Assembly (NCBI GenBank): GCA_023379265.1
Contig: JAMCUI010000007.1
Location: 82,330 to 146,329, forward strand
DNA from: Patescibacteria group bacterium
GTDB taxonomy: Bacteria > Patescibacteriota > Microgenomatia > 2-02-FULL-39-11
Reading direction: 5' to 3'
DNA: 64,000 bases
The notes under the pieces were generated by a model. It searched no databases. It had not been told where the DNA came from and saw nothing but the letters and a program-made list of their open reading frames with translations. Shown here one piece after another: positions 16,901 to 38,236 of the stretch. The first letter of the stretch is position 1; every line of letters starts with the position of its first letter. A program made the position numbers and the translations under genes.

Positions 16901-17795
16901 GAGAGATGCTTTGGAGTATTGGAAAGCTGTGCGAAAGATGATGTTGGGAGATTTATCTCCTGATTTACATGAGCGTTTATACGAAAAGCTCGGTCTTAAA
17001 ATGTCAGAGAATGGTTATGACTACGATATTGATTGGGAAAAGATCGAGCATGTAGATCATATTGTAAATGAAATAAGTCACGGTGAAGGGATTGATTTGG
17101 GTAATTTGGAAGGAGTACGTATTCAAATTCCACATCAATTAAATAAGGAGTTGATAGATAAAGAGTGGGATGAAATGTTCAGCCCCGATGACATTTCCAT
17201 AAGAGAATTGGATATGATGAATCTCGGCTCAAGACATCTTATCAGGCGCGGAGGGGATGCACTTGCTCATTATCAGGGAGGACAACGGTTGGAAAAGTAT
17301 CTAATGTATGACCTCAAAGGCAATCCGAATCCTGAAGATTTGGCAAAAGCCTTATCGGAAGTGGCTCAGGCATATACTGGTGATGATACATTAAAAGGTT
17401 GGAGAGCGGCTGGAATGTGGGCATATGCAACGTCGAAATTTTATTCGTTTGATTATGGGCATTTGGGTTCTCCTGCACAATTGCAAGTGTATGGAACGAG
17501 AAGAGGAATTGCCGCCTGGATGGCAAACGGCAGAAGAAAATTCTGGGATACAATTGAGCATCTTGATGTTTTACCGCCTACTCATGAGGGTTTTTTGGAT
17601 TATTATGCACAACCAGAGCTCATGAATATACATGAATTACGAAGATTGTCAAAAGCTGATAATGTTGATGTTTGGATGGAAATAGTGACTTTGGGTGCGG
17701 CATTGGCTATAGCCTTGACTATTTACCGGGCATTTACCGCACCTTCAGAAGAAGAGGAAGGCGGTGGGGGAGGCGGTGGCGGGGGACATCACTGA
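13959..17795 (+). CDS. Giant hypothetical protein (1278 aa): acidic/basic coiled-coil N-terminus, single C-terminal TM helix, poly-Gly-HH tail
   Basis: Uninterrupted 3.8-kb ORF. N-terminus is highly charged (EEEKRLREEAQRSKIEAE...). C-terminus is VTLGAALAIALTIYRAF followed by EEEEGGGGGGGGGHH. No recognisable catalytic motif. Converges on and overlaps the VirB6-like gene by 7 nt. Confidence 0.6.
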   Translation: MTSPEAGGLFGQLKNLLTQLFIDKKRIEEEKRLREEAQRSKIEAETPENIRRDRERHREEDEERAYRERASADEMAEEEQGEIQNRRIGLRKQAIKEELRKAIAQQEMIAGERQVYKEYAYVDYLVSDFRADTNLRDGLYALIDANYSAALIIEKIIKGGKALHSDPQQLLDIGAALYFQASQSGMVPAIQPILNEVEERVLQLFIDVRKKGIETRSGGVREINNPAQFLADADKRYPPNDFRDLSSNNPAEWRRGIHNILNSARPGADAEYTREALESAVSIDRNAPPPQKLVNEVSDLLQKVQDRENAGEPLSSSELNDLSDEIDQVGFNSFPQDVVAGTNRYLQTAANIRSYTESVKNKLAEKAVERLRSEVPSVERNLTSEQFLERIGHPGDMGRLLVSSPDVAKLLVGNTKESSSFRFKVFLRIHAAVLTQRRESFHDNFGLYERADFTAFINHIRNNMKGVRPETGQPFGEAWVDWYVGLSNSIRLSRDIDFWASQPGADPEQFNRSLSLFLNEYNVQLMSVPGVEQAYRAYLSTIKSIKNHNDGYVPPALVEYSPGKMVSGWDNMAREWVKKMISMGQIQDVDRDPYGFHKLEENGFTLKLKEGPEGKLKMENMSNEEMAMYMTLAKGYGISTWMLLDEFANSKVPGSDHPRWGMTGFHSLAAYEGVARAGNYFASVVTKWKYTFKYFHMMNMLVPEHKRKVWGASDFNEAKKAYIAYRNGTFEKEFGKDAKRMIDLDNFSHFSANLPFSGWRHVDMTIGWSDKLRESMGSAHQIGMANAFAGAKVKDYFVVDKYKKEFRDKMREAGQPYAGPRFDALWQERGYPIYKARIENEWDSIKHKEEVEELVSKYAKAYKARVWIETAMRNPLAIAQNVKVKVPIPGFTAEEGKRDVSIHLLLVQKILGIPYEDIKYGDDPKSREAKVYASPTVSQERWMKEAADLESDIAVVREIAIRENRELRESDFNAISDAHRKRDALEYWKAVRKMMLGDLSPDLHERLYEKLGLKMSENGYDYDIDWEKIEHVDHIVNEISHGEGIDLGNLEGVRIQIPHQLNKELIDKEWDEMFSPDDISIRELDMMNLGSRHLIRRGGDALAHYQGGQRLEKYLMYDLKGNPNPEDLAKALSEVAQAYTGDDTLKGWRAAGMWAYATSKFYSFDYGHLGSPAQLQVYGTRRGIAAWMANGRRKFWDTIEHLDVLPPTHEGFLDYYAQPELMNIHELRRLSKADNVDVWMEIVTLGAALAIALTIYRAFTAPSEEEEGGGGGGGGGHH

Positions 17796-19345
17796 TGATG
17801 TCCATCTCCCTTTTTGGAGAACATACTCATTATAGATTGCAAATAGTAGAATTGGCTCATAGCTCCCATACCGGTTCCTACCGCTCCAGTAACTGGTGCA
17901 AAAGCACTACCAGCAGTGACGGGTATAGCAGCTTTCGGATGGAAAAGTTTTTTGACGGAAGCAATCATGTTTGGAGCCATAAATATAATTCCCAGCCCGA
18001 TTACTATAGCCAACGGATTACCTTTTATATGCAGTATGCTTTGATTTGTGCCCGGAATAGTGAGATTGAGCTCTCCACCTCCAGCAGGAATTAATGGTGG
18101 ACTCCAGAGGTTACCGCTCCAGGCAATAGACGTAAATATCCAACTGAAATAAATAACCGCAACAGTAGTCGGAAAAACTATTAAATTAGCAATTATGTTT
18201 TGTATCCATTGGCCGAACGCTGATCTTCCGGGAATAGCTTCCTGAAGAAGGAGAATAGGAGCAATAATGACAGTCAATAATAGTTGGATATACGAGTTTA
18301 AGAGAAGGAAAAATATCCTTATAAACGTAAATAAAAGACCAAGACCGATAATAAAAAGTATTATAGCAAGTGGAGCTCCTGCTAAAAAAAGTCCCCATCC
18401 ACCTGTAAAAGTACCCAATATTGCAAGCATTGCTTCAATAATAATTGTGATTGCGCCATAACCCAATAAGTTTGTTCCGGAACTGAAAAATGCCTGTTGG
18501 AAAAAAGATGGTACCAGTCCTAATGAGAAAACGGCTGAAGCCAGTTTCCCGATACCTGCCCACCCGCCTCCCATAAATTCCTGTTGCTGTTGGGCAACGT
18601 TTTTAAGAAAATCTGCCCCAATAATAAGATTGTTTGGAACAGCGCTCGCCATAAGTTGAATTACAATTGCTATTGCCAGATACATTAAATCGATGAAAAA
18701 ACCGGCAATCGGGTATGAGAAGGTAATTAGAAGCAAGGTAACAATAATTTTAGGTAATGCTGCCTGAATAGAAATTACTGTTTTGGGGTCAATTTTCATA
18801 CGGAATATTATCATGAAACCAATGGCGATCATAATAATAATCAGTATGGTATATGCTATATTCCTTGCAGTTTGCCAAAGTGGCAAAAGAGGGACAAGGC
18901 CTGAGAATCCAATTCCCTGAGCGTTAGCGGGTGTAGCCAAAAAGCCAGAATTTGCCAACAGGTTTTGTGTATATGCTATAGCTGAAGCCGGCGGATGGTC
19001 GTATAATGTTCCTATGGCTTGAGCCATCAGTCCTAGAGCGCTTGTGTTTTCCAGACTGCTTTGCCCATTATTTGCGCTTGATGACTGACATGGCATGAGG
19101 GCACAAGTCAATTTCCCAATCATTGTAAAAGTGTTATAGCCTATTACTCTGTCAGAAAAAATTACAGTTTGACCTGTGTTTTTTTCGACATTTTCTGCAC
19201 TTTGTTCGTTAGTGAGCATTTTTTCAAAAGAGAAATTGAAAGGATTATCAGCCGCTGAAATTTTTTTGGGTAAGATGAGAAGAAATAGAACAAAGGATAT
19301 AGATAAAATAACTAAAAGAAGCATCTTATCAGGCAGTTTAAGCAT
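17789..19345 (-). CDS. Polytopic membrane protein, VirB6/TrbL-like (type IV secretion-type)
   Basis: 518 aa. Signal/TM N-terminus, ~130-aa extracytoplasmic domain, multiple TM helices, Gly-rich C-terminal tail. Directly adjacent to six VirB2-like pilin genes. Confidence 0.45.
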   Translation of the reverse strand: MLKLPDKMLLLVILSISFVLFLLILPKKISAADNPFNFSFEKMLTNEQSAENVEKNTGQTVIFSDRVIGYNTFTMIGKLTCALMPCQSSSANNGQSSLENTSALGLMAQAIGTLYDHPPASAIAYTQNLLANSGFLATPANAQGIGFSGLVPLLPLWQTARNIAYTILIIIMIAIGFMIIFRMKIDPKTVISIQAALPKIIVTLLLITFSYPIAGFFIDLMYLAIAIVIQLMASAVPNNLIIGADFLKNVAQQQQEFMGGGWAGIGKLASAVFSLGLVPSFFQQAFFSSGTNLLGYGAITIIIEAMLAILGTFTGGWGLFLAGAPLAIILFIIGLGLLFTFIRIFFLLLNSYIQLLLTVIIAPILLLQEAIPGRSAFGQWIQNIIANLIVFPTTVAVIYFSWIFTSIAWSGNLWSPPLIPAGGGELNLTIPGTNQSILHIKGNPLAIVIGLGIIFMAPNMIASVKKLFHPKAAIPVTAGSAFAPVTGAVGTGMGAMSQFYYLQSIMSMFSKKGDGHHQ

Positions 19346-19447: not shown

Positions 19448-19762
19448 TTATTGGGGGATTGTAAAAGTGGTAATGTTGACTCCGGTAAAACTTTCAATAA
19501 GTTTGAATATTATAAAGGCAACAGCAAAAAGGACAATTCCAATGATGGCATAGGTCATAGTTTGTTGTGCGGAAGCTGCGGCTTTTTGATCACCTCCAGA
19601 GGTAAGAAACTTAAAACCTCCAATGGTTAACATAACAAATAACGCCAAAACAGCCAGACTAATTGAAATTGTTAGAATTCTAGTAAAAACTACTTCTAAG
19701 CATTTGAAAGTTGGGATGTCTACTCCACCTATATTAAGAGTACATGTTGACCAATCAGTCAT
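19448..19762 (-). CDS. VirB2/TrbC-type (T4SS pilin-like) small membrane protein, paralog 1
   Basis: 104 aa; GGFKFLTSGGDQKAAASAQQTMTYAIIGIVLFAVAF, the GG-aromatic-x-TSGGD-x-A motif flanked by two hydrophobic helices. Confidence 0.6.
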   Translation of the reverse strand: MTDWSTCTLNIGGVDIPTFKCLEVVFTRILTISISLAVLALFVMLTIGGFKFLTSGGDQKAAASAQQTMTYAIIGIVLFAVAFIIFKLIESFTGVNITTFTIPQ

Positions 19763-19782
19763 GAAGATAAATTGGTATTAAA

Positions 19783-20172
19783 TTAAAATGGTGTCGGGAT
19801 GCTAAGATTCTGAAGGTTAAACCCAAGGAATTGTCCGGCTACCAACATGATTGCCCATGCAGCAAATACAATAAAAAGCCCCAAGAGAGCTGCTTGGATA
19901 CGGTGTTGAGCAGCTTCAACTCCAGCTTTGTCGCCTCCTGAGGTGATCCAGCCAAACCCACCCCAGATAAGGAAAATAAAGGCAGCCAGAGCGGAAACAA
20001 CCAGTATAAGACCAATAATACCGCCTATCAGTTTACCAGGATCAACTATTTTCAAATTTGGAGGTGTGGAAACACTGATGTTTACCTGGGCAAGCGCGAT
20101 TGATGGGAAAAATATAAGAGTGCTGATACTTCCTATTCCGATTGCTGATGCTAATTTTATTGCCTTTTTCAT
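19783..20172 (-). CDS. VirB2/TrbC-type pilin-like protein, paralog 2
   Basis: Signal peptide, then WGGFGWITSGGDKAGVEAAQHRIQAALLGLFIVFAAWAI. Confidence 0.6.
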   Translation of the reverse strand: MKKAIKLASAIGIGSISTLIFFPSIALAQVNISVSTPPNLKIVDPGKLIGGIIGLILVVSALAAFIFLIWGGFGWITSGGDKAGVEAAQHRIQAALLGLFIVFAAWAIMLVAGQFLGFNLQNLSIPTPF

Positions 20173-20288
20173 GATTTTACCCTTTCTTTCAGTATTATGA
20201 ATAGTTTTTTAATGCTTGTCAAGCTCTTTAGTAACAAATTTATAGCAAACAAAGAAAATTTAGTTTTTCATTATTAACAAAATAAGTG

Positions 20289-20639
20289 TTACAAAAGTTT
20301 AGGTAGACTGAGTTGGAAACCACCTCCAGCGATTGAGCCTATACCTAAGAACCTCAGGATAAGTAAATAAATTGTCCAGGCGGCAAAAACAATAAACAAA
20401 CCTAAGAGAGCGTTAGTAATTCTGTTTCGTGCGTTTTCCACACCAGTTTTATCTCCACCTGAGGAAATCCACTCCAGGCCTCCTTGTAGCAGCTGAAATA
20501 ATGTCCAGATTGAAGCAAATACGAGGATTAGTCCAACCAGACCGGAGATGAAGGTGCCTAAGATACCTCCTGCATTATCAGGGTTTGCGTTTGCAATTCC
20601 AGATACTACTGGGTTGACAATAGGATCGATATAAATCAT
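20289..20639 (-). CDS. VirB2/TrbC-type pilin-like protein, paralog 3
   Basis: Internal Met start (ATGA overlap with the upstream gene). LQGGLEWISSGGDKTGVENARNRITNALLGLFIVFAAWTI. Confidence 0.55.
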   Translation of the reverse strand: MIYIDPIVNPVVSGIANANPDNAGGILGTFISGLVGLILVFASIWTLFQLLQGGLEWISSGGDKTGVENARNRITNALLGLFIVFAAWTIYLLILRFLGIGSIAGGGFQLSLPKLL

Positions 20640-21079
20640 ATGCCAAGGTTTTGTAAAACACTTCCTGGATTTAAGATACTTAGTCCCAGCATTGATCCTA
20701 TCACTCCGATTATTGCCCAAGCAATAACAACAATTACAAGTCCGATAAGAGAATTGGTGATTTTATCTCGTGCGGCCGTCGTATCGTTTTTATCTCCACC
20801 TGCTGAAATCCACTGAAATCCTGCCGTAATAAACTGGAATATAAACCAAAGAGCAGCAATCATGGTTAAAAAACCAATGACACCGCTGATGACTTTATTT
20901 AATGTATTCCCTACATCCTCTTTAGTATTGTTCTGGCAAAGAAAATCGGCTATAACCCCAAATCCTCCTCCACACCCAAGTCCTTGACTACTGTTTGTGG
21001 TTTGTGCTTGAGCTATTTTCCCTGAGTAAACAAAAAGTAACGAAAAAGTAAAAAGTGTGATAAATAATTTGATTTTCAT
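20636..21079 (-). CDS. VirB2/TrbC-type pilin-like protein, paralog 4
   Basis: Signal peptide, Cys pair, ITAGFQWISAGGDKNDTTAARDKITNSLIGLVIVVIAWAI. Confidence 0.6.
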   Translation of the reverse strand: MKIKLFITLFTFSLLFVYSGKIAQAQTTNSSQGLGCGGGFGVIADFLCQNNTKEDVGNTLNKVISGVIGFLTMIAALWFIFQFITAGFQWISAGGDKNDTTAARDKITNSLIGLVIVVIAWAIIGVIGSMLGLSILNPGSVLQNLGI

Positions 21080-21097
21080 AATCTTACTTATATTATC

Positions 21098-21478
21098 TTA
21101 CTGCTGTAGTTGTGGTTGCAATATTGCAGTTGGGTTCTTGAAGAGCAACATGCCAATGATTGCAGCCAGAAGAAATGAAGAAACGATAATGAGTAGACCT
21201 AAAAAGGTTTGCCAGATACGTTCCCATGATTTTCCTATCGCTTTTGAGTCCCCACCCGCTGTCATAAATCCAAATCCACCAATTATCAGATTTATAAAAC
21301 CCCAGAGTCCAGCGATGATAAACACTAACTTTAATAGCGAATTTAGAAATATAAGCATACCTGTTAATTTACCGGTAGAGTCGATTCCAGATTGTATAAA
21401 GCTTGGTGGGGTGATGCAACCTATTGCAGGATCACAAGCAGCCAATATGTAATTTATGATGATCATGTTAAAAACCAA
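21098..21478 (-). CDS. VirB2/TrbC-type pilin-like protein, paralog 5
   Basis: IGGFGFMTAGGDSKAIGKSWERIWQTFLGLLIIVSSF. Confidence 0.55.
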   Translation of the reverse strand: MVFNMIIINYILAACDPAIGCITPPSFIQSGIDSTGKLTGMLIFLNSLLKLVFIIAGLWGFINLIIGGFGFMTAGGDSKAIGKSWERIWQTFLGLLIIVSSFLLAAIIGMLLFKNPTAILQPQLQQ

Positions 21479-21794
21479 GACCGCTTAACGAGCCATGTGT
21501 AACGAAGTTTATTATTTGCAATATCCAGTATGCACCAAACATGGTGACAAGTCCAATTATGGCATAGGTTAGTGCCTGTTTTTTACTTTCAGCCTCATGA
21601 GAATCTCCTCCTCCGGCACCGGAAATCATACCTATGCCAGCTACGATTATAATTACGAAGGAGATGATTCCACCCAATAGTAATATGTTGGGTAAGAGAT
21701 GGGAAACAATATCAGAAAGTGAACTAAACCCTCCATTTCCGTTTTCACCGGACAACTGCCAAACTTTTGATATGTCTACCTGTGCCAATCGCAT
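21468..21794 (-). CDS. VirB2/TrbC-type pilin-like protein, paralog 6
   Basis: IVAGIGMISGAGGGDSHEAESKKQALTYAIIGLVTMFGAYWI. First gene of the minus-strand array, divergent from the sigma factor. Confidence 0.5.
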   Translation of the reverse strand: MRLAQVDISKVWQLSGENGNGGFSSLSDIVSHLLPNILLLGGIISFVIIIVAGIGMISGAGGGDSHEAESKKQALTYAIIGLVTMFGAYWILQIINFVTHGSLSGLGF

Positions 21795-24578: not shown

Positions 24579-24595
24579 TTTACCTCTTAATAATT

Positions 24596-25636: not shown

Positions 25637-25640
25637 ACTT

Positions 25641-26783: not shown

Positions 26784-26888
26784 AGTAGAACTGGTACCAA
26801 AACCTATATTTTCGGCTTAGTATAATTGCATTTTTACACTCAAATAAACAGTTTTAATAGAGGTTTTAGTAACCTAAAGGAATAAATT

Positions 26889-27188
26889 ATGATCAGTCCG
26901 GTCAAAGTTTGGCGCAATCAAAAAAAAATTCAAAAAATATTAGGGCTTTATGGAATAATAGTTTCCTGGACTAAAGTACATGTTCCTCCAGTGGGATTTT
27001 CCTCTCAAGCCCCATATGTGATTGTTGTGGTTAAGCTGGAATCAGGTAAAAGTTATATAGCACAACTTGTTGATTGGAGTGAAAATAGCTTGAAAACAGG
27101 ACAGAAGGTGAAAGCTGTTTTAAGAAGAACAAAGAATCCAGGTGAAGAAGGAGTGATACCATACGGTGTTAAGTTCAAACCCGTGTGA
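26889..27188 (+). CDS. DUF35-type OB-fold protein (thiolase/HMGCS complex partner)
   Basis: 99 aa; OB-fold segment YVIVVVKLESGKSYIAQLVDW...GQKVKAVLRR. Position after thiolase + HMGCS as in archaea. Confidence 0.6.
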   Translation: MISPVKVWRNQKKIQKILGLYGIIVSWTKVHVPPVGFSSQAPYVIVVVKLESGKSYIAQLVDWSENSLKTGQKVKAVLRRTKNPGEEGVIPYGVKFKPV

Positions 27189-27201
27189 AACTTCATAAAC
27201 A

Positions 27202-28164: not shown

Positions 28165-28168
28165 CTTT

Positions 28169-29092: not shown

Positions 29093-29113
29093 TAAAGTCT
29101 TTATAAGTAAAAT

Positions 29114-30091
29114 ATGAAAGCAACTGCGCTTGCACCATCAAATATCGCTTTTATCAAATATTGGGGGAGAATTGATGAGATTTTACGGTTGCCTACAAAC
29201 AGTAGTATTTCCATGAATTTAAGCGGGATGCATACTGTGACTACTGTGGAATTTTCAGTAAAATATGAAAGGGATGATGTTGAGATTGATTGGCAAAAGA
29301 ATGATAGAGAAACGGAACGCATTGTTGATCATTTGGATAGGATAAGAAATTTAGCCAAAATTAACGACAGGGCAAGAGTCGTCAGTAGGAATAATTTTCC
29401 GTCTTCTACTGGTCTTTCCTCGTCAGCTTCAGGATTTGCCGCTTTGACTGTATCTGCTTCTAAAGCTGCAGGTTTGGAATTGCCGGAAAAAAAGTTGTCG
29501 GTATTAGCTCGGTTGGCATCAGGGTCTGCCTGCCGATCAATACCTGACGGTTTTGTAGAGTGGGAGAAAGGAATAGACGGTGAAAGTTCGTATGCTTTTT
29601 CTTTGTACGCCTCAAAATGGTGGCAGATTGCAGATATTGTTGTCATTGTTTCCCAAAATAAAAAAGATATGCCTACTACACAGGGTCAAAAACTTGCAGG
29701 TACTAGTCCTTTTTTCAAGACCAGGCTGAATCTGATAAATGAGAAAATTAAAGAATGTAAAAGCGCTATCGCCGAAAGAAGTTTTTTGGCTTTTGGTAAT
29801 CTTATCGAAAAGGAAGCGTTGGAAATGCACGCTATTATGCTGACTTCAGATCCTCCTTTAATATACTGGCAGCCGGCAACTTTACAAATGATGAAATTAG
29901 TGGAAAAATGGCGCAAAGAGGGATTACAGGTCTATTTTACGGTAAATACCGGGCAGGATATTCATCTAATTTGCAAGAAGGATGATGTAGAAAGAGTTAT
30001 GGTTAAACTGAGAAGTTTAGATATCGTAAGAAATATAATTATTAATTATCCGGCAAAAGGAACACGGTTGGTAAAAAAACATCTTTTTTAA
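29114..30091 (+). CDS. Mevalonate (di)phosphate decarboxylase family protein
   Basis: APSNIAFIKYWGR and SSTGLSSSASGFAALT (MVD/GHMP signature). Diphospho- versus phospho-mevalonate specificity not decidable by eye. Confidence 0.75.
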   Translation: MKATALAPSNIAFIKYWGRIDEILRLPTNSSISMNLSGMHTVTTVEFSVKYERDDVEIDWQKNDRETERIVDHLDRIRNLAKINDRARVVSRNNFPSSTGLSSSASGFAALTVSASKAAGLELPEKKLSVLARLASGSACRSIPDGFVEWEKGIDGESSYAFSLYASKWWQIADIVVIVSQNKKDMPTTQGQKLAGTSPFFKTRLNLINEKIKECKSAIAERSFLAFGNLIEKEALEMHAIMLTSDPPLIYWQPATLQMMKLVEKWRKEGLQVYFTVNTGQDIHLICKKDDVERVMVKLRSLDIVRNIIINYPAKGTRLVKKHLF

Positions 30092-30092
30092 T

Positions 30093-30797
30093 ATGGAAGA
30101 TTCTGCGAAATTACACATACCAAAGCATGTAGCTATCATTATGGATGGCAACCGCCGTTGGGCAAAGGAAAAAGGCTTACCTTCATTTGAAGGTCATCGA
30201 ATCGGTGAAGAAAAAATTGAGCCTATTGTAGATAAGGCAATAGAACTCGGCATAAAGAATCTTACTTTTTGGGCGTTTTCTACTGAAAATTGGAATCGTA
30301 CAAAAAAAGAAGTTTCATTCCTGATGAATTTATATAGACGTCAGTTAAATAAAAAGGTGGATAATTTCCATAAGAAAAATGTCAAGGTCAACGTCATAGG
30401 TAATATAACAATGTTCCCAGAGGATATACAAAGGAAGACTGCAAAATGGATGGAAAAAACAAAAGATAATACTAGGATTACTGTAAATATTGCGCTCAGT
30501 TATGGCGGAAGAGACGAGATAATCCGCGCTATTGAAAAATGGCAGATTAAATTTGGGAAATCAAAGTCAAAACTGACAAAGGAAGAGTTTGAGAAATATT
30601 TAGATACTGCCGGTCAGCCGGATCCTGATTTGCTAATAAGAACCGGTGGAGAAAAAAGATTATCAGGTTTTCTTTTATGGCAAATGGAATATGCTGAGTT
30701 TTATTTTACAGATGCTTATTGGCCAGTTTTTACACCTGAAGAGTTTATGAAAGCAATCATTGATTATTCGGGAAGAATGAGGCGTTTTGGGAAGTAG
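30093..30797 (+). CDS. uppS: Undecaprenyl diphosphate synthase (cis-prenyltransferase)
   Basis: HVAIIMDGNRRWAKEKGLP, LTFWAFSTENWNR, ELLIRTGGEKRLSGFLLWQ. Confidence 0.9.
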   Translation: MEDSAKLHIPKHVAIIMDGNRRWAKEKGLPSFEGHRIGEEKIEPIVDKAIELGIKNLTFWAFSTENWNRTKKEVSFLMNLYRRQLNKKVDNFHKKNVKVNVIGNITMFPEDIQRKTAKWMEKTKDNTRITVNIALSYGGRDEIIRAIEKWQIKFGKSKSKLTKEEFEKYLDTAGQPDPDLLIRTGGEKRLSGFLLWQMEYAEFYFTDAYWPVFTPEEFMKAIIDYSGRMRRFGK

Positions 30798-31787: not shown

Positions 31788-33110
31788 TTGATGGATCCAA
31801 ATACTGCATTTCCACCCGGCTCTCCGCCAATTGCACCATCCAGTCCTCCATTGGTACCTCCCGGTTATTCACAACAGATGCCTGATAATTCACCCTTCAA
31901 GAAACTTCTTCCGCTTGTTCTGGTAGTTGTAGTCTTAATGATTTTATTCTCAGGTATATTGGTATTATCTGTGGGAAAATCAGGTAAACAGCAAACAGTG
32001 CCAACGCCTACTTTGCGTCCGACAGCTACTCCGTTTGTCGCTCCTACAATGCCTATGGTCTCACCGTCCACCTCATCCTTGTCAGCAAATTTAGTGACGC
32101 CGATAAAAATCGGTAGGTTGTCTTTTATACGAGACGGTGATATTTACAATAGCGATCTTGCCACTTATTCACTTTTAGTCAAAAATGATATTCACGCAGC
32201 AGATATGCTTTCCTGGTCACCAGACGGAAATTTCCTGGCTTGGAGGGAAAAAACAACGTCTGCCACTCCTTCTGCGATTATGATATATAAGAGAAATAAT
32301 AAACGTACATTTGAAATAAAACCATTTGAAGAAGGAAAAATTAATGAAGTGATTGATTATGCCTGGTCTCCTGATGAGTCACAGATGTCTGTATTATCCC
32401 ATGGTACTTTTTATAATCTGAATTTGTACAGTTTGATATCTTCTTCCTCAGGAGAAAATATTGTCGGGCGTAGTGAAAAGATAAAACAAATAGTATGGCC
32501 TAATCCTAAAACCATACTTTTTTCTGGTAGTGACGGGATAACAGCTTATGATTTGGCTTCAAATTCTGCAAGTCTGATTGTTGATAATCCGAAAGTTATG
32601 CATATGAATTTAAGTCCGGATCATAAAAAACTCCTTTATAGTATTGGGGATAATAGTAAAAGCGATTTATATACAATTAATATTGATGGAACTGATAATA
32701 AGCAGCTTCCCTTGCAACCGGTAAAAATAGATATGGGAACAACCAATTTGCCTCAGTCAATTCTGGAAAAAGGTTTTATCCCTTATGCGGTCTGGATGCC
32801 GGATAGCAATAATTTACTTGTCGGTTATCACTATATTACAAATCTACCCTTAGTAGGCAAGTATAATTTGCAGAATAATTCATTTACTGCTATAGCGCCT
32901 TTTATGCTCTACCAAACGGATATTATGGTGGATAGCCTGCGTTTGTTGGGAAACAGAGTAAATACTTTTTCTAGCGCCATTCCTACCTGGCAAATTTCTC
33001 TTTTTACTCTTGAGGATAATGCAAATCTTGGTTTGGTTAGAGTGATACCAGACGCTTCTTCCCCTGCATTTTTCGGAAACGATATATTACCTGGAGGAAA
33101 TACTTTCTAG
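31788..33110 (+). CDS. Membrane-anchored beta-propeller (TolB-like) protein with Pro-rich N-terminus
   Basis: Pro-rich start, TM helix, Pro/Thr linker, then repeated DG/SPD blocks (WSPDGNFLAW, WSPDESQMS, LSPDHKKLLY) typical of TolB-type propellers. Confidence 0.5.
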   Translation: MMDPNTAFPPGSPPIAPSSPPLVPPGYSQQMPDNSPFKKLLPLVLVVVVLMILFSGILVLSVGKSGKQQTVPTPTLRPTATPFVAPTMPMVSPSTSSLSANLVTPIKIGRLSFIRDGDIYNSDLATYSLLVKNDIHAADMLSWSPDGNFLAWREKTTSATPSAIMIYKRNNKRTFEIKPFEEGKINEVIDYAWSPDESQMSVLSHGTFYNLNLYSLISSSSGENIVGRSEKIKQIVWPNPKTILFSGSDGITAYDLASNSASLIVDNPKVMHMNLSPDHKKLLYSIGDNSKSDLYTINIDGTDNKQLPLQPVKIDMGTTNLPQSILEKGFIPYAVWMPDSNNLLVGYHYITNLPLVGKYNLQNNSFTAIAPFMLYQTDIMVDSLRLLGNRVNTFSSAIPTWQISLFTLEDNANLGLVRVIPDASSPAFFGNDILPGGNTF

Positions 33111-33132
33111 TTCTTGTCTTTCCTATATTTTC

Positions 33133-33441
33133 CTACTGTATTTTTAAGATAAACTGCACTATTTGGACTATCCAGTACGCCACGAATATGAGAATAAAAC
33201 CCAGTAATGCATTTGTAATTTTATTTTTTCCCGACTCTGCCTTTTTAGGATCGCCCATTGAAGTGAGAAAATCAAAACCGCCCCAAACTAAGTATAACAA
33301 AAGAAAGACTCCCGCAACCGGAAAAACAATCCTATTTGTGGCCTGTGTGACAATAGATGCTAAATTTGGAAATCTATCAGCTGGTAAAGGCCCTACTATT
33401 TGTTGTCCACCAGGGAGATTTAATATTTGAGCAATTTTCAT
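33133..33441 (-). CDS. VirB2/TrbC-type pilin-like small protein
   Basis: 102 aa; VWGGFDFLTSMGDPKKAESGKNKITNALLGFILIFVAYWIV. Confidence 0.55.
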   Translation of the reverse strand: MKIAQILNLPGGQQIVGPLPADRFPNLASIVTQATNRIVFPVAGVFLLLYLVWGGFDFLTSMGDPKKAESGKNKITNALLGFILIFVAYWIVQIVQFILKIQ

Positions 33442-33476
33442 AATTCAATATTATATTAAAATTAGTACTATCTCAA

Positions 33477-34808
33477 TTATCCAAATCCCGGAATTTTGAA
33501 AATATCGACACCGATAAACTTTAATAAAAATACTGAGAATATGATGAGAAATAATCCTGATAATGATGAAATAATTATCTGACGGGCCTCCTCAATCTGT
33601 TCTGTATTTCCGGCAGACGTCAATATCATAAAGGCACCATATATAAAATATAGGAAAGATATACCACCAGCCATTCCTACGCCAGTAGTGAATATATAAT
33701 CTTTTATCAGGGCAGTGAAATCCAACGGTATACACCCGATAGCTGTCCACATTTTTCTACCACTGGCCAAACAAGCAGAACACTTACTTTGATATTGTGG
33801 GTCCAATTGATCGCAAAGAGGCTTAATATCAGGAACAAAAGCAACCGTAGGATGTACTGCTCCCGGGCAACCTGGACATGTATTACAACCATTGGAGCAT
33901 GTTCCTGTGTTGCAAGGAGAAAGTGAACAGAATGACGGAATAGTGGGAGTGAGTATAGGGGTAGAGGTGGGATTTGGAGTTGCGCCTTTTGGTGCTATTT
34001 CAAAAGTAGTGGAGCACATCTGCTGAGCGTTTTTATAAATAAGTAAATCGTGATCAATTAAAAATCGTAAAGTGGCATTCATAACACCAAAAGATGCAAT
34101 TGATACTGCTGTTGCGGTAGGATCAATTTCCAGTTGATAGACTGATGTATTATGTTGTCCGGCAGTTCTCAGATTTATGGGAATTGGCTCCTCAATTGTT
34201 GAGGTGGGACTTTCTACAGCTACTTGATTACCATCAATGGTAATTCTAAGGGGATTTGGTATTGATATGGAAAATCCAGGTATGCTGACTGGTACAAAGA
34301 AAGTAGCATTTTTTATATCAGACGCAACCACTTTCCATGAAGCATCGTCGACATCCCCCAAACCTGTGTAATTTGCCTCGATTTTACATGTAGGATTTAA
34401 AGCATTTATTGTAATTGTGCTGATATTGCATACTTGTATATTCTGATTGGCTAATTTATATATTAATTCAACAGAGTGGGTGCCTGGACTTGTGAGAAAT
34501 GGTCCACAAATTCCATTGTTGTTTGTTGAAAATACGGGATTATTCGGATCAGACACTACAGGGTTTCCACATGCTTCATTTTCTGGAAAAGAAAAAACCA
34601 ATTGTCCTCCTGAGGGGTATTTTGACAGCTCCTGTTGGACAATAGCTCCATCAAATTTTAGTGAAATACTGTTTACGGGAGCAGTCAATGGTGGTCTAGG
34701 ATTTACTATCAAATTGCAGTCTGCAGCAGCACTTGTTTTTGTGACTGAAGAAAAGAAAAAAAATGTTAAGAAAATGAGGCAGACGGCTGCTTTAACTGTA
34801 TTTCGCAT
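33477..34808 (-). CDS. Secreted cysteine-rich protein fused to a C-terminal VirB2/TrbC-type pilin-like module
   Basis: 443 aa. Signal peptide, ~350-aa Cys-rich extracellular region (CNTGTCSNGCNTCPGCPG...), then C-terminus LTSAGNTEQIEEARQIIISSLSGLFLIIFSVFLLKFIGVDIFKIPGFG. Confidence 0.55.
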   Translation of the reverse strand: MRNTVKAAVCLIFLTFFFFSSVTKTSAAADCNLIVNPRPPLTAPVNSISLKFDGAIVQQELSKYPSGGQLVFSFPENEACGNPVVSDPNNPVFSTNNNGICGPFLTSPGTHSVELIYKLANQNIQVCNISTITINALNPTCKIEANYTGLGDVDDASWKVVASDIKNATFFVPVSIPGFSISIPNPLRITIDGNQVAVESPTSTIEEPIPINLRTAGQHNTSVYQLEIDPTATAVSIASFGVMNATLRFLIDHDLLIYKNAQQMCSTTFEIAPKGATPNPTSTPILTPTIPSFCSLSPCNTGTCSNGCNTCPGCPGAVHPTVAFVPDIKPLCDQLDPQYQSKCSACLASGRKMWTAIGCIPLDFTALIKDYIFTTGVGMAGGISFLYFIYGAFMILTSAGNTEQIEEARQIIISSLSGLFLIIFSVFLLKFIGVDIFKIPGFG

Positions 34809-34847
34809 GTTATTGCTAAATCAAAAGGCGCAATTCAATTTGTAAGT

Positions 34848-35333
34848 CTAACTGAACCCTGGAATTCTAAAGATGTCAAAACCAACAAAATGCAAGAGAA
34901 ATACGGAGAATAATATGAGGAGGATTCCTACAATTGAAGAAAAAATCATATCCTTCCCGTTTCTAAGACGTTCAGGGTCACCTGAGGATGTAAGAACAGT
35001 TGCGCTGCCTGCAAGAACTGCCAGAAAAGCAATCCCTCCTGAGACTCCAAAAACAATAGAGAGTATTGATTTGACAAAAAATTCAGGTTTAGTGGAAAGA
35101 CATCCTAAGACTGTATAGTAAGTACCCTTTTGCTCATTTCCGTTCAGGTCATAAAGACATGTATGACACTGGTCCCAGTTGGGAGGTTTTGGATTGAATG
35201 CCGGGTTACACCAACCGCAAAGATCACACGTAGGCTGATCAGTTGGCGTTGCGTCTTGAGCTTTTACCAGGTTTACACTAAATAAAAGAGCGATGAAAAA
35301 AATAAATAAAAATATAAGTGTTTTGTTGGGCAT
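34848..35333 (-). CDS. Smaller Cys-rich protein with the same C-terminal pilin-like module
   Basis: 161 aa. Signal peptide, Cys-rich 60 aa (CDLCGWCNP...CHTC), C-terminus LTSSGDPERLRNGKDMIFSSIVGILLILFSVFLLHFVGFDIFRIPGFS, near-identical to the tail of 33477..34808. Confidence 0.55.
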   Translation of the reverse strand: MPNKTLIFLFIFFIALLFSVNLVKAQDATPTDQPTCDLCGWCNPAFNPKPPNWDQCHTCLYDLNGNEQKGTYYTVLGCLSTKPEFFVKSILSIVFGVSGGIAFLAVLAGSATVLTSSGDPERLRNGKDMIFSSIVGILLILFSVFLLHFVGFDIFRIPGFS

Positions 35334-35414
35334 TGAGTTTAGTGTAGCAAATGGAGAGTGGAATTCAAGAGATGGTCAAATATTACATCCATATGCACCA
35401 TTTTGGTTGTATAA

Positions 35415-37274
35415 TTGTCTTATACCTCTTTAACTATTCATGATATGTTTCTTAGACCTTCAAATAATAAACAAAAGAAGTTATTCTTACTGTTCAAATC
35501 AGACAAGAGGATCAGAAAGTTAGTCTTAATTGCAGGGAGCCTCTTTTTGATGATTGTGTTTCTTTTTCCTTCTTTATTTACCGCATTACATCCTGTAATT
35601 GCCGATGATTGCAATCAGACATGTTTTGATCAATTAACAAAGCAGATTGGCGATTTGAACCGTGCTTTACAGTTGTCTATTGCTGCAACAACCCCTTTGG
35701 AAAAAAATCTTGACCAATTGCAGAACAATCTGGCTGATATTAAACAAAAAATAGCTGCAATTGAGGCTGATGTTGAACAGAAACAAAAAGAGGTGGATGA
35801 GGGAGACAAGTTGTTAGTTTTAGCTCAAGACCTTCTAGGCAAAAAGGTGCGTGCACTTTATAAAACATCCTCATATTTTGGAGGAAGCGGACTTTTTATT
35901 CTCTTAAATAACAATCTGTCACAATCCGTCAGAGAATTTGGTTATCAGAGGAAATTGATGGAGGACGACAGGGATGCAATTATACAGGTAGTACTTTATG
36001 TACAGGATCTTGAAGTAAAGAAAAAGAATCTCGAGGAAGAGAAGACGCGTTTGGCACAAGTTAAGGATGAAACTGACAAGCAAGCAGTAACACTTCAGAC
36101 AGTTATTGAAGGTGCAAAAAAATACCAGGCAGATTTGACTTCGCAAATAGCCCAGTTGACAGCCCGTCAACAGCAAATATTGGCACAAAGGCTAGCAAGC
36201 TTAAATATTCCACTTTCAGCAGCTTCGATGGGTCGGTGTGACAGTGATCTCACTAATGGGCGTGACCCTGGATTTTCCCCAAAATTTGCTGTCTTTACCT
36301 ATGGTGTGCCAAATAGGGTTGGACTCAATCAGTGGGGAGCCTATGGGAGGGCAAGAGCGGGTCAGGGATACGATCAGATACTTCATTCTTACTATAATTT
36401 TGACGGCTATAAAGATTGGGATACTAATACAAAGATTAATGTTGATGGTTACGGCAGCTATAACCTTGAAGATTATGTGAAAAGGGTTTACGAAGTACCA
36501 AATTCGTGGGGAGACGGTGGCGGTATGGAAGCGTTGAAAGCCCAGGCGATTGCCGCAAGATCCTATGCTCTGGCTTATACCAATAACGGATCGGGTTCCA
36601 TTTGCACATCGGAAAGTTGTCAAGTATTTCAGTCTCAAGACAAAGGAGGAAACTGGGATGCGGCAGTCGATGCCACTCGTGGAAAAGTGATGGTTCAGGG
36701 AGGCAACCCTATTAAAGCCTGGTTTTCGTCAACGCATGGCGGATATGTCTTTAGCTCTGGGGATGTCGGATGGAGTAATACTTCATGGACAAAGAATGCA
36801 CGCGATACCACAGGAAATGTAGGTAGTTTTTCAGATTTGCAAAATACTTCTTATGATAAAGATTCTCCTTGGTTTTATTGTGATTGGGGATCGCGTTCGG
36901 AGTATAATAAGACTGCTTGGTTAAAACCCGATGAGTTAGCTGATATTGTAAATGTTTTAATGTTGGTAAAAAGGGACTCAGGGATAGCAGAGCATCTTTA
37001 CCAAACTGATCAACCCAATCCCGCTGGTACCGACACTTGGGATAAAAGTCGCGTAAAACAGGAATTGCAAAGTCGTGGAGGATCACCTTATAACACTATT
37101 TCAGATGTATCAGTTAGCGCAGATTTTGGATCGGGTAGGGTAACAGGAGTGACTGTTTCCGGAGATGCAGGATCCAATACTTTTGACGGAAGTGATTTCA
37201 AGAACTATTTTAATCTTCGTGCCCCTGCCAATATTCAGATTGTCGGTCCGTTATATAATATTGAAAAGAGGTAG
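35415..37274 (+). CDS. SpoIID/LytB-domain peptidoglycan hydrolase-like protein with N-terminal coiled coil
   Basis: NRVGLNQWGAYGRARAGQGYDQILHSYY and AIAARSYAL are SpoIID/LytB hallmarks. N-terminal 250 aa is coiled-coil (EnvC-like). Confidence 0.7.
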   Translation: MSYTSLTIHDMFLRPSNNKQKKLFLLFKSDKRIRKLVLIAGSLFLMIVFLFPSLFTALHPVIADDCNQTCFDQLTKQIGDLNRALQLSIAATTPLEKNLDQLQNNLADIKQKIAAIEADVEQKQKEVDEGDKLLVLAQDLLGKKVRALYKTSSYFGGSGLFILLNNNLSQSVREFGYQRKLMEDDRDAIIQVVLYVQDLEVKKKNLEEEKTRLAQVKDETDKQAVTLQTVIEGAKKYQADLTSQIAQLTARQQQILAQRLASLNIPLSAASMGRCDSDLTNGRDPGFSPKFAVFTYGVPNRVGLNQWGAYGRARAGQGYDQILHSYYNFDGYKDWDTNTKINVDGYGSYNLEDYVKRVYEVPNSWGDGGGMEALKAQAIAARSYALAYTNNGSGSICTSESCQVFQSQDKGGNWDAAVDATRGKVMVQGGNPIKAWFSSTHGGYVFSSGDVGWSNTSWTKNARDTTGNVGSFSDLQNTSYDKDSPWFYCDWGSRSEYNKTAWLKPDELADIVNVLMLVKRDSGIAEHLYQTDQPNPAGTDTWDKSRVKQELQSRGGSPYNTISDVSVSADFGSGRVTGVTVSGDAGSNTFDGSDFKNYFNLRAPANIQIVGPLYNIEKR

Positions 37275-37302
37275 GAATAGATTTAATCATAATTTTTAAA
37301 TT

Positions 37303-37974
37303 GTGCCAGACATTTTTGTTTCTCAACCTCCTCCCACAAGCCCCGTTTCATCACCGGCTGATATTCCGATTAATACTGTAGAAAACCCTAAGAGCAAATT
37401 TTCGTATTTGGGGAAACTTTTTTCCTCATATATGTTTATGCCTGATGGGGTGAGATTTGAGACCCAAGAGCCTGGAGAAACGATCATGCTTTTGTTGCGT
37501 AAGCATTGGCTTACCAATATTGGCTGGGTATTAATAAGCGTTGTTTTACTTTTTTTGCCGTTTATATTACTTCCAATGTTAAAATTGAGCGGTACTTTAC
37601 CCGAGACGACTCCCGCTTCTTGGATAAGTCTTTTTATTCTAGCATGGTATCTATTGACGTTTAGTTATTTTCTTGTGAATTTTCTTCTTTGGTATTTTAC
37701 CGTATCAATAGTCACTAATGAAAGAATCGTGGATATAGATTTTATAAATCTACTCAATAAAAAATTTGCAGAGACAAGAGTTGCAAGAGTGGAAGATGTC
37801 ACAATGCGCACCGGTGGTTTTATCAGGTCTTTTTTTGACTACGGGGACGTTTTTGTGCAAACCGCTGCTAAAGAAGCTGTTTTTCAGTTTTTGGCTGTAC
37901 CTCATCCTGAAAAAGTGGTAATGGTAATAAATAAGATTATGGGGGTTGAAGAAGAGGAGGGAGAAGTACACTAA
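37303..37974 (+). CDS. Membrane protein with bacterial PH (YdbS/YdbT-like) domain
   Basis: Two TM helices followed by VTNERIVDIDFINLLNKKFAETRVARVEDV (bPH_2-like). Confidence 0.5.
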   Translation: MPDIFVSQPPPTSPVSSPADIPINTVENPKSKFSYLGKLFSSYMFMPDGVRFETQEPGETIMLLLRKHWLTNIGWVLISVVLLFLPFILLPMLKLSGTLPETTPASWISLFILAWYLLTFSYFLVNFLLWYFTVSIVTNERIVDIDFINLLNKKFAETRVARVEDVTMRTGGFIRSFFDYGDVFVQTAAKEAVFQFLAVPHPEKVVMVINKIMGVEEEEGEVH

Positions 37975-38210
37975 TGACTATAGAACAGATACTGGTAACA
38001 TTTATCACTTCAGCTCCGGCAGTCTTTATCAAAGCTGTAGCTGTCATTATCCTTTTTCTACACTTGGCGTTTTCAGTTGTTGTTGTAAGGCAGACAAAAT
38101 TGATGACTGGTGTTGTTGAAGCAAATATTTCACCTGCAATTTATGGAATAGCTATAATCCATTTCCTTTTTTCTCTTTTTGTATTCATGTGGGCTATTCT
38201 TTTTACTTAA
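37974..38210 (+). CDS. Small two-TM membrane protein
   Basis: 78-aa hydrophobic ORF, start overlapping the previous stop. Confidence 0.35.
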   Translation: MTIEQILVTFITSAPAVFIKAVAVIILFLHLAFSVVVVRQTKLMTGVVEANISPAIYGIAIIHFLFSLFVFMWAILFT

Positions 38211-38236
38211 AAATTGATTAAATAAAAGTAGACTGT

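Follow-up and report, generated by a model that had tools for sequence, protein, structure and literature searches.

The three-gene locus examined here extends the known CPR pilin arrays, and what is new in it is a distinct subfamily of pilin-like proteins, referred to below as IPGF-type, that carry ectodomains. The genes lie side by side in an ultra-small CPR (Patescibacteria) bacterium; two of them encode IPGF-type proteins of 161 and 443 amino acids and the third encodes a short partner of 102 amino acids. We put at about even the chance that the two larger proteins are constant pilin-like hairpins showing variable ectodomains, which would serve as minor or adhesin subunits of a CPR T4SS. 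Throughout, the window denotes the whole 64,000-nucleotide stretch of DNA that was analyzed. The features of the locus are:

34848..35333, minus strand: ORF of the 161-aa IPGF-type 'mini' pilin-like protein
35262-35333, minus strand: its signal peptide (residues 1-24)
35088-35261, minus strand: its six-Cys ectodomain, CDLCGWC..CHTC..GC (residues 25-82)
34851-35087, minus strand: its two-helix hairpin and IPGFS tail (residues 83-161)
33477..34808, minus strand: ORF of the 443-aa IPGF-type 'maxi' pilin-like protein
34728-34808, minus strand: its signal peptide (residues 1-27)
33987-34727, minus strand: its two predicted Ig/FN3-like beta-sandwiches (residues 28-274)
33825-33986, minus strand: its Pro/Thr linker and six-Cys cluster (residues 275-328)
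33480-33824, minus strand: its conserved C-terminal module, with a four-Cys cap, helices 364-397 and 402-436 and an IPGFG end (residues 329-443)
33133..33441, minus strand: ORF of the 102-aa short partner pilin, a PF18895 match
35341..35349, minus strand: extended -10-like element TGCTACACT, at 7 nt before the start codon (ATG) of the 161-aa gene

The three ORFs are real genes under strong purifying selection (dN/dS 0.03-0.10), separated by gaps of 39 bp (161/443 aa) and 35 bp (443/102 aa). Measured against the closest relative (L006; dS 0.24-0.38), dN/dS was 0.07, 0.07 and 0.03 for the 161-, 443- and 102-aa genes. The ectodomain value relative to the same genome was 0.10, with purifying selection everywhere and no positive or diversifying selection detected; tblastn found no silent or partial ectodomain copies in the window, indicating that cassette-type variation is absent here. 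A generic promoter and terminator scan of positions 32900-35600 returned sites no commoner than chance, and the -10-like element emerged only from comparison across loci. TAnACT lies 4-12 nt ahead of the start in 41 of 75 related loci, against a background of 2%, and 36 of these 41 carry the TG extension. The element suggests a leaderless operon transcript and is a candidate for that function.

Architecture of the three proteins

An earlier note on this DNA had described two proteins with a signal peptide and Cys-dense regions, and both features hold up. By hydropathy, each protein starts with a hydrophobic signal sequence bearing an AxA-type site (LVKA↓QD in the 161-aa protein, TSAA↓AD in the 443-aa protein) and two C-terminal hydrophobic helices. 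All six Cys of the 161-aa protein fall within 58 residues (25-82; binomial p ~5e-6), while 10 of the 17 Cys of the 443-aa protein fall among the 66 residues 294-359 (p ~8e-11), both calculated against a Cys background of 0.75% from window ORFs of at least 100 aa. The Cys columns of both proteins are kept in orthologues. NCBI annotates the 161-aa protein as 'pilin' (MCL4338427.1) and the 443-aa protein as 'hypothetical protein' (MCL4338426.1). The 102-aa protein, also named 'pilin' by NCBI, has two hydrophobic helices with no signal peptide and no Cys.

The two larger proteins share a module of 115-130 residues in which a Cys cap (C..CxxC..WTAIGC here, [WY]TAIGC in the IPGF-type as a whole) is followed by a membrane hairpin of two helices and, at the end, by IPGF, and they align at 36% identity over 124 aa (E=5e-22). 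The tails had been called almost identical; they are indeed shared, but at 26 of 48 identical positions over the last 48 residues and 17 of 24 over the last 24 they fall short of near-identity, and the common region is longer than had been proposed, as it includes four aligned Cys that precede the first helix. The hairpin helices are joined by a short loop (TSxGD/N...K) conserved across the window's paralogues. Mean pairwise identity is 63% in the hairpin, which has invariant Gly, Phe and Ser positions, versus 23% in the Ig domains, a level well above that of a generic anchor; such strong conservation of hairpin and loop points to a conserved partner protein in addition to anchoring in lipid. 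A profile of the shared module (A5) matches the 443-aa protein at E=1.8e-50 and the 102-aa protein at E=1.3e-13. The predicted topology is a hairpin with both ends extracellular. Given the signal peptide and two helices, the extra domains would be extracellular, in agreement with the placement originally proposed, and the C-terminus is also predicted to lie outside because some homologues bear Pro/Thr-linked, Cys-rich extensions after IPGF. This motif comes after the last helix, either as the very end of the protein or ahead of an extension of extracellular type.

The ectodomains themselves differ from what had been expected. A Cys-knot or toxin-like fold had been suggested, whereas the cargo of the 443-aa protein is mostly predicted to be paired Ig/FN3-like beta-sandwiches, and its dense Cys belong to a short linker cluster and to a cap that is part of the conserved pilin module itself. 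The AlphaFold2 model (pLDDT 80.5) matches tandem Ig/FN3 ectodomains in Foldseek (E ~1e-5), and the predicted fold is of the tandem Ig/FN3-like kind that characterizes surface receptors. The ectodomain has no match in Pfam. For the 161-aa protein, the model (pLDDT 78.9; helices 83-115 and 120-154) gave nothing below E=0.26 in Foldseek against the PDB, and only generic helical hairpins, a search that is uninformative on pilin identity because helical hairpins cannot be discriminated. Sequence searches of the PDB, run with the profile of the 161-aa family and with the 102-aa protein, gave weak matches to zinc ribbons or designed proteins and none to a pilin.

Family assignment and known systems

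On profile matches, all three proteins belong to PF18895 (T4SS_pilin, CPR bacteria) as a locus family, the 443-aa sequence being marginal when taken alone. The adjacent stand-alone gene, already read as pilin-like, scores 43.2 bits, well above the cut-off of 26.6; the 161-aa protein scores 26.4 bits, 0.2 below the cut-off, and the 443-aa protein scores 17.6 bits on its own sequence. Orthologues place the assignment on firmer ground, as 27 of 27 orthologues of the 161-aa protein (best E 7.8e-9) and 21 of 22 of the 443-aa protein (best E 7.6e-7) match PF18895 at E<=0.01, so that the tails behave as pilin tails and not as generic anchors. The small size typical of the family (~100-130 aa, with little beyond the hairpin) fits the 102-aa protein only; the 161-aa protein has 58 extra mature residues and the 443-aa protein ~300.

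The proposal of a VirB2/TrbC-like module found no support in these comparisons. PF04956 (TrbC/VirB2; cut-off 27.9) scored both the 102-aa and the 161-aa protein at 15.9 bits, did not match the 443-aa protein and reached E<=0.01 in 3 of 27 orthologues of the 161-aa protein. With hhalign, alignments A5 (shared module) and A1 (seven paralogues of the window) paired with VirB2 at a probability of 0.4-0.6%, in a comparison of low power owing to the narrow VirB2 alignment (20 Agrobacterium/Rhizobium-type sequences). Homology to classical VirB2/TrbC is thus not detectable by these profile methods. Other surface-protein signals were also considered. The three proteins contain neither the class III motif of type IV pilus pilins (G↓F/M-T-L-x-E) nor an LPXTG for sortase anchoring, and IPGF comes after the last helix and not at a helix start as a PGF-CTERM signal would. 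A type IV pilin reading is rejected given the Sec-type AxA signal peptides and the C-terminal hydrophobic module, and sortase or PGF-CTERM sorting is rejected as well. Type IV pilus minor pilins of the CofB/TcpB type follow the same logic as here, a conserved polymerization module joined to a large variable tip domain, but they combine a class III signal with a single N-terminal helix, whereas IPGF-type proteins lack G/FTLxE and carry their module at the C-terminus.

Among the closest known systems are the CPR VirB2-like arrays (PF18895; Wang et al. 2023 Cell, PMC10633639; Quinonero-Coronel et al. 2025, PMC12102498), which share the Pfam family and the hairpin and are likewise tandem paralogues, chromosomal, near the origin and T4SS genes, and abundant in Microgenomatia. 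Those arrays consist of small divergent pilins of ~100-130 aa, whereas the IPGF-type is a well-conserved subfamily with a Cys cap and IPGF end, ectodomains reaching more than 500 residues, and a short partner and SpoIID-like neighbor that are both fixed, and it stands apart from the array here. Classical VirB2/TrbC/TraA pilins (PF04956) resemble the IPGF-type in name and in having a signal peptide, two hydrophobic helices, a short loop and both ends out (predicted here); they differ in bearing no fused globular domains, their adhesin being a separate protein (VirB5/TraC-type). VirB5 tip proteins and PrgB adhesins correspond in proposed role, which is to present an adhesive domain at the end of a T4SS that makes contact. 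In Patescibacteria, for which PrgB-type adhesins were not detected (PMC12102498), nothing else is known to fill this role. VirB5 is soluble and helical and PrgB is an LPXTG wall-anchored protein, both unrelated to the IPGF-type in sequence and fold; in the latter the adhesin-like domain is covalently joined to a pilin-like hairpin and LPXTG is lacking. The Mbov_0395 family of mycoplasma ICEs (NF045849), from a monoderm T4SS, gives weak hairpin matches of 33.2, 20.1 and 15.2 bits, all below the 40-bit cut-off, and its members are small and without ectodomains.

Distribution and genomic context

The fusion is conserved in related genomes. A profile of the N-terminal domain of the 443-aa protein, searched against 1.84 billion representatives, matched only 45 proteins. 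The domain sits N-terminally in the ~40 strongest of these, among which none joins it to another anchor; the remaining ~6 weak matches (E of 3.5e-9 or greater) are long multi-repeat proteins outside this architecture tally. The 24 newly retrieved sequences have the same architecture, three of them truncated and without a complete C-terminal module. In a set of 80 Microgenomates species, IPGF-type pilins range from 115 to 665 aa with up to 50 Cys, and 51 of 91 exceed 200 aa. Extended forms are thus the majority of the subfamily within Microgenomates, so that the architecture, described earlier as non-standard, is so relative to classical VirB2 but not within this lineage.

The IPGF-type layout is likewise conserved across this whole CPR lineage. 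In 62 of 78 loci the IPGF-type gene is directly followed by a partner pilin of ~114 aa, at a median distance of 3 bp, and the best match of the 102-aa protein is the short downstream pilin in 10 of 12 array-holding loci. No description of this layout was found in the searchable CPR pilin-array literature. The surrounding genes in the window are:

35415..37274, plus strand: SpoIID/LytB-domain protein, 619 aa (TIGR02669, PF08486)
19448..21794, minus strand: six-ORF PF18895 pilin array (Pfam and local profile matches), with ORFs at 19448-19762, 19783-20172, 20289-20720, 20636-21079, 21098-21478 and 21468-21794
17789..19345, minus strand: 518-aa multi-pass membrane protein with ~8 helices by hydropathy, adjoining the array

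The 619-aa protein has a coiled coil and a single membrane helix, located at its N-terminus. It scores 120 bits against TIGR02669 (cut-off 83.3), matches PF08486 at 7e-16, and may be the enzyme that opens the cell wall for the module. In 54 of 80 loci a SpoIID-like gene is the immediate, divergently transcribed upstream neighbor, an arrangement that holds wherever the gene is present, and it is followed by bPH, 613-aa and DUF5657 genes in 46, 42 and 25 loci. The six-pilin array, ~12 kb from the three-gene locus, is probably part of the same apparatus. At least nine other species have the SpoIID/IPGF/partner module contiguous with an array of 6-8 pilin genes, and in 13 loci other than those with the SpoIID-like neighbor the IPGF-type pilin adjoins, convergently, a homologue of the window's 518-aa protein (E 1e-39 to 1e-58; 1.6e-17 for one truncated 292-aa ORF). 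This multi-pass protein has no Pfam match and was not recognized as VirB6; its likeness to VirB6 is confined to position and topology. No BLAST similarity links the 1278-aa protein of the window to a 1257-aa protein in the equivalent position elsewhere (L046), and the two are at most positional analogues.

PrgI-like, TraC-like and VirB4 genes lie beside dnaN in the same genome, with VirB4 and PrgI-like proteins encoded just left of the window, near the replication origin. A phmmer search of all ORFs within 6 kb of the 80 loci found no VirB4, PrgI-like or TraC-like protein and no homologue of a 500-aa neighbor (L004), and the T4SS link therefore rests on the pilin family and on the array and multi-pass neighborhood. 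VirB2-like pilin arrays are common in Microgenomatia, and PF18895-family arrays stand beside VirB4 in more than 1000 CPR assemblies (PMC12102498). No CPR T4SS pilus has been seen, and reviews mention only a 'potential' to elaborate one.

Competing readings and a proposed mechanism

Two further readings concern the Cys-rich regions. That the Cys modules bind metal in the manner of a zinc ribbon (CxxC...CxxC), making the 161-aa ectodomain a metal-stabilized knob instead of a disulfide-knotted one, strikes us as rather unlikely; this proposal covers Cys chemistry only, is compatible with a role as pilin or as anchor, and is weighed separately from them. It draws on the spacing C36-x2-C39-x2-C42 ... 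C56-x2-C59 ... C78 in the 161-aa protein, on the zinc ribbons that are the only PDB sequence matches of its family profile (RPB12/RPABC4 at E=0.087, and eL40), and on the fact that many CPR bacteria live anoxically, where disulfides are less secure. These matches are not significant, however (RPB12/eL40, E=0.087-1.9), and the location is predicted to be extracytoplasmic, where disulfides are the rule; distant family members retain only two Cys (TC...GC), which fit a single ancestral disulfide, and four of the Cys positions are kept in the 443-aa protein. Cys density combined with a signal peptide could also mark secreted toxin or bacteriocin-like precursors whose hydrophobic tail is an export or immunity element. 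We consider this highly improbable, as there is no match to toxin or bacteriocin families and no processing site between ectodomain and hairpin, the bulk of the 443-aa protein is predicted to be Ig-like, the tail matches a pilin HMM family-wide, and the genes keep their chromosomal position in 80 species, where no pattern of transporter or immunity genes accompanies them.

A more serious alternative, to which we give appreciable though clearly less than even weight, is that these surface proteins remain in the membrane, where the hairpin would be a specialized anchor, perhaps paired with the short partner. They would then act independently of a T4SS, either in envelope remodelling with the SpoIID-like, bPH, DUF5657 and 613-aa proteins or as fixed receptors. 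The SpoIID-like gene, always divergent and adjacent, is the most constant neighbor, its followers recur with it, and no T4SS ATPase was found within 6 kb of the 80 loci; large N-terminal domains, sometimes at both ends, would be awkward in a polymer, and no homology was detected to the proven filament-forming VirB2. A role in remodelling the envelope would account just as well for the close synteny with SpoIID. Against a membrane-bound role stand the arrays that the hairpin family forms beside VirB4 (PMC12102498), the array-associated multi-pass protein that the gene adjoins in 13 species, the 6-8-gene pilin arrays that it heads in at least nine, and the hairpin and loop conservation that suggests a protein partner.

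Incorporation into a T4SS, as minor or adhesin subunits, is the explanation that we favor, and it extends the tip or minor-subunit role suggested earlier on the basis of the domain fusion. The conserved module would consist of one or two IPGF-type PF18895 proteins, the short partner and the divergent SpoIID-like enzyme, and the variable part would be whatever is fused before the hairpin, occasionally behind it. Precursors would be exported by Sec and their signal peptides removed, after which the hairpin would enter the cytoplasmic membrane with the ectodomain outside. The hairpin may then contact the partner pilin and a T4SS-like machine encoded near the replication origin (VirB4, PrgI-like protein, multi-pass protein and the six-pilin array at 17.8-21.8 kb), and the proteins could be incorporated as minor, nucleating, tip or base-anchored subunits, with adhesive ectodomains facing the host. 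Local opening of the peptidoglycan would fall to the SpoIID-like enzyme. What the analysis establishes is that the genes are real, which family they belong to, how their domains and predicted topology are laid out, and how they are conserved and arranged on the chromosome; the T4SS interaction, filament incorporation, adhesion and SpoIID role we infer. Since a 340-residue domain on each subunit would misfit dense VirB2-type packing, only sparse or terminal incorporation is conceivable. Also weighing against this explanation are the lack of VirB4, PrgI-like or TraC-like genes within 6 kb, the lack of significant similarity to VirB2/TrbC, the multi-pass protein not being recognized as VirB6, the fact that no CPR T4SS pilus has been seen, and the absence of positive selection on the ectodomain.

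More tentatively, monoderm CPR bacteria might have a pilus derived from a T4SS whose missing adhesin or tip subunits are the IPGF-type proteins, assembled together with the dedicated partner through a hole cut by the SpoIID-like enzyme, although we give this clearly less than even odds. If so, these would be, to our knowledge, the first pilins of T4SS type to carry host-binding domains that are covalently fused and vary between lineages, and the ectodomain would set which host cells a Microgenomates species attaches to. The co-regulated SpoIID-like transglycosylase would replace VirB1, which most pilin-bearing genomes lack (PMC12102498). The signature C..CxxC..WTAIGC ... IPGF can be used to find such proteins in other genomes, and should they remain in the membrane, the locus would still mark a widespread CPR surface-display anchor. 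In S. epibionticum, the one genetically tractable CPR bacterium, the T4SS and its pilin array are essential (PMC10633639, PMC12857230). The IPGF-type proteins offer a candidate for how CPR bacteria contact their hosts, with the ectodomains as candidate adhesin, the short pilin as candidate assembly partner and the SpoIID-like protein as candidate wall-opening enzyme.

Cysteine-rich proteins with a pilin-family module

The locus comprises three closely spaced genes, separated by 39 bp (161- and 443-aa genes) and 35 bp (443- and 102-aa genes), in a CPR/Patescibacteria genome whose GC content in the window is low (about 37%).

34848-35333, minus strand: ORF of 161 aa (MCL4338427.1, "pilin" in NCBI)
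33477-34808, minus strand: ORF of 443 aa (MCL4338426.1, "hypothetical protein" in NCBI)
33133-33441, minus strand: ORF of 102 aa (MCL4338425.1, "pilin" in NCBI)

NCBI holds all three exact proteins under "Patescibacteria group bacterium", and the closest named relatives are Candidatus Gottesmanbacteria. The 443-aa gene is listed as hypothetical though both genes flanking it are annotated as pilins. Comparison with the closest relative, L006 (dS 0.24-0.38), gave dN/dS values of 0.07, 0.07 and 0.03, so all three genes are real and constrained.

The 161- and 443-aa proteins each begin with a Sec-type signal peptide and carry two hydrophobic helices in their C-terminal part, while the 102-aa protein has the hydrophobic helices only. 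The earlier note had flagged signal peptides and Cys-dense regions in the two long proteins, and both were confirmed: cysteines make up 10/66 (443-aa) and 6/58 (161-aa) of the flagged stretches versus 0.75% in window ORFs (p about 8e-11 and 5e-6), and orthologues keep the cysteine columns of both proteins. The tails, described there as almost identical, are clearly homologous (36% identity over 124 residues, E=5e-22) but diverge more than that wording implies, with 17/24 identities in the final 24 residues. The common unit is larger than was noted and starts at four aligned cysteines before the first helix (C332/C343/C346/C359 in the 443-aa protein, C39/C56/C59/C78 in the 161-aa protein).

Pfam PF18895 (T4SS_pilin, cut-off 26.6 bits) scores 43.2, 26.4 and 17.6 bits for the 102-, 161- and 443-aa proteins. 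The module of the 443-aa protein falls under the single-sequence threshold, yet 21/22 of its orthologues, scanned singly, match, as do 27/27 of the 161-aa family; the tails are thus pilin-like, as proposed. The same scans found no other Pfam family in the N-terminal parts. The proposed homology to VirB2/TrbC could not be shown, with PF04956 at 15.9 bits against a cut-off of 27.9 and an hhalign probability below 1% against 20 aligned bona fide VirB2 sequences. Similarity of these proteins to classical TrbC/VirB2 is not demonstrable, and "pilin" here denotes membership of the CPR family so named together with a VirB2-like topology.

Conserved neighborhood in Microgenomates

Scanning with the shared C-terminal module, taking one genome per species and calling and searching ORFs locally, yielded 80 loci; those with a name all belong to Microgenomates lineages (Gottesman-, Roizman-, Woese-, Shapiro- and Beckwithbacteria). 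This Microgenomates-specific neighborhood is also present in dozens of TPA_asm MAG records (L006, L009, L011-L013 and many others) under the titles "uncultured Gammaproteobacteria" or "Pseudomonadales", which are apparently placeholders or taxonomic errors. The proteins recovered, here called IPGF-type (a Cys cap, a two-helix membrane hairpin and a terminal IPGF motif), range from 115 to 665 aa, with 51/91 over 200 aa. N-terminally they are enormously varied; Ig-like regions occur, as do Cys-rich repeats containing as many as 50 cysteines. The variable ectodomain is seen in extreme form in two adjacent IPGF-type proteins of another Microgenomates species (L055, 3601-4971 and 4987-6267), where repeated Cys-rich modules with 46 and 50 cysteines precede the same hairpin.

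A short pilin (median 114 aa) directly follows the IPGF-type gene in 62/78 loci, at a median gap of 3 bp. The 102-aa protein has this downstream pilin as its best match in 10 of the 12 array-bearing loci, and the short pilin is therefore its positionally conserved orthologue. At 13 of the 16 loci lacking this partner, the IPGF-type gene is convergent with a homologue of a 518-aa multi-pass protein of the window. A SpoIID/LytB gene, wherever found (54/80 loci), lies immediately upstream on the opposite strand, and is followed at related loci by the same genes as in the window (35415-40078). The unit of SpoIID, IPGF-type and partner genes continues without a break into an array of 6-8 short pilin genes in at least nine species; the Gottesmanbacteria unit has two IPGF-type genes, equivalent to the 161- and 443-aa genes, and stands apart from the array. 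The corresponding features are:

35415-37274, plus strand: SpoIID/LytB-domain protein with one N-terminal membrane helix and a coiled coil, divergent from the pilin operon
37303-37974, plus strand: bPH_2 protein
37974-38210, plus strand: DUF5657 protein
38237-40078, plus strand: 613-aa protein of no family
19448-21794, minus strand: first pilin array, with six PF18895 ORFs; 20289-20720 and 21098-21478 raise the count from four
17789-19345, minus strand: 518-aa protein with about 8 membrane helices, flanking the array
13959-17795, plus strand: 1278-aa protein with a C-terminal membrane helix, ending GGGGGGGGHH
L004 851-6538, immediately left of window position 1: T4SS core beside dnaN-dnaA, encoding PrgI/VirB3-like (497 aa), TraC-like (226 aa), VirB4 (652 aa) and 500-aa proteins

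The plus-strand ORF at 21057-21452 is probably spurious antisense. The 518- and 1278-aa genes converge beside the array, and neither product matches a Pfam family. Homologues of the former adjoin IPGF-type pilins in 13 other species, and giants of 1200-1330 aa, unrelated in sequence, hold the position of the latter at three inspected loci (L046, L057, L078). L004 is the same genome as the window or a near-identical one, and the position of its T4SS core beside dnaN-dnaA puts core, array and second pilin locus all no more than about 45 kb from the replication origin. Between the two pilin loci lies a complete-looking mevalonate pathway cluster (23391-30797, plus strand), followed by undecaprenyl-diphosphate synthase. 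The genes for its thiolase, HMG-CoA-synthase-like protein and small OB-fold protein are direct neighbors, as is known from archaea.

The 81-bp divergent intergenic region contains TGCTACACT (35341-35349, minus strand), an extended -10-like element ending 7 nt before the 161-aa ATG. A TAnACT hexamer occurs 4-12 nt before the start at 41/75 related loci versus a 2% background, 36 of the 41 with the TG extension, and this motif points to leaderless transcription from a conserved extended -10 promoter; a generic scan alone gave no promoter signal above chance. The 102-aa gene has its own TTGAGA-17-TAATAT (33448-33476, minus strand) 6 nt upstream of the start codon and may thus be expressed from a separate promoter.

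Predicted structure and topology

AlphaFold2, run on orthologue alignments, gave usable models (pLDDT 78.9 for the 161-aa and 80.5 for the 443-aa protein).

161-aa protein: signal helix; small Cys module of a short helix (53-60) and beta-hairpin (71-80); long helices 83-115 and 120-154
443-aa protein, N-terminal part: signal helix; beta-sandwich domains at about 33-135 and 140-272
443-aa protein, middle: low-confidence Pro/Thr linker with a 6-Cys cluster (294-314)
443-aa protein, C-terminal part: conserved cysteines on a helix (337-348) and hairpin (352-361); then helices 364-397 and 402-436

In Foldseek the beta-sandwiches resemble tandem Ig/FN3 ectodomains (Fc-gamma receptor II at 1.6e-5, ICAM-5, the integrin beta4 FN3 pair) and therefore represent a generic surface-receptor fold; the membrane hairpin alone gave nonspecific matches only. 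The bulk of the 443-aa protein is thus Ig-like, which does not bear out the suggested disulfide-knotted or toxin-like fold. A toxin or bacteriocin is unlikely, given this Ig-like bulk, the lack of a processing site and of a family match, and the conserved chromosomal synteny. Against 1.84 billion representative proteins, the profile of the tandem Ig region had only 45 matches. In the approximately 40 strongest, the Ig domain lies at the N-terminus of a 380-810-aa protein, rather than in a known unrelated family with other anchors; about six weak matches are long multi-repeat proteins. All 24 newly retrieved sequences, bar three truncated ones, have the common architecture.

Some homologues continue past IPGF with Pro/Thr linkers and further Cys-rich domains (P0241, of 811 aa, and P0243, of 749 aa, among others), which argues that both hairpin ends face outward. 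Such long extensions, also found in P0244, P0249 and at L016 4525-6522 and L027 314-1156, mean that the hairpin can display domains at both ends.

Candidate roles in a T4SS-like apparatus

The observation in the earlier note is confirmed and its interpretation partly supported, in that pilin-family membership, predicted extracellular placement of the fused domains and conservation of the fusion in relatives are borne out; the tip role suggested there stays a proposal. The locus very probably represents a conserved CPR pilin-like subfamily whose members display variable ectodomains on a constant out-in-out hairpin with a Cys cap, accompanied by a short partner pilin. The cysteines may form disulfides or bind metal. 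Zinc ribbons are the only PDB matches of the family profile and are non-significant. In more remote members only two cysteines remain, a pattern that points to an ancestral disulfide.

Arrays of 2-11 VirB2-like pilin genes were reported in 383 CPR assemblies and abound in Microgenomatia; no PrgB-type adhesin was detected, CPR T4SS genes are often near dnaA, and VirB1 is absent from most pilin-bearing genomes (PMC12102498). In S. epibionticum the pilin array and T4SS are essential, and a pilus is hypothesized only (PMC10633639, PMC12857230). The papers searched describe neither large ectodomains fused to pilins nor a fixed partner pilin, and none of them brings SpoIID into this setting or links it to Patescibacteria. 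It is an evenly balanced proposition that IPGF-type proteins are minor, nucleating or adhesin subunits of a T4SS-like apparatus with the SpoIID-like enzyme as its wall-opening factor, and this enzyme could be a VirB1 substitute. The main rival, somewhat less probable, is that they stay in the membrane as anchored surface proteins and act together with the SpoIID cluster but not with the T4SS. Mean pairwise identity in the 443-aa family rises from the Ig domains (23%) through the linker and cluster (35%) and Cys cap (46%) to the hairpin (63%), a gradient that would not be expected of a mere lipid anchor. These proteins and their neighbors provide specific candidates for the adhesin, assembly partner and wall-opening enzyme of an essential, uncharacterized CPR apparatus.
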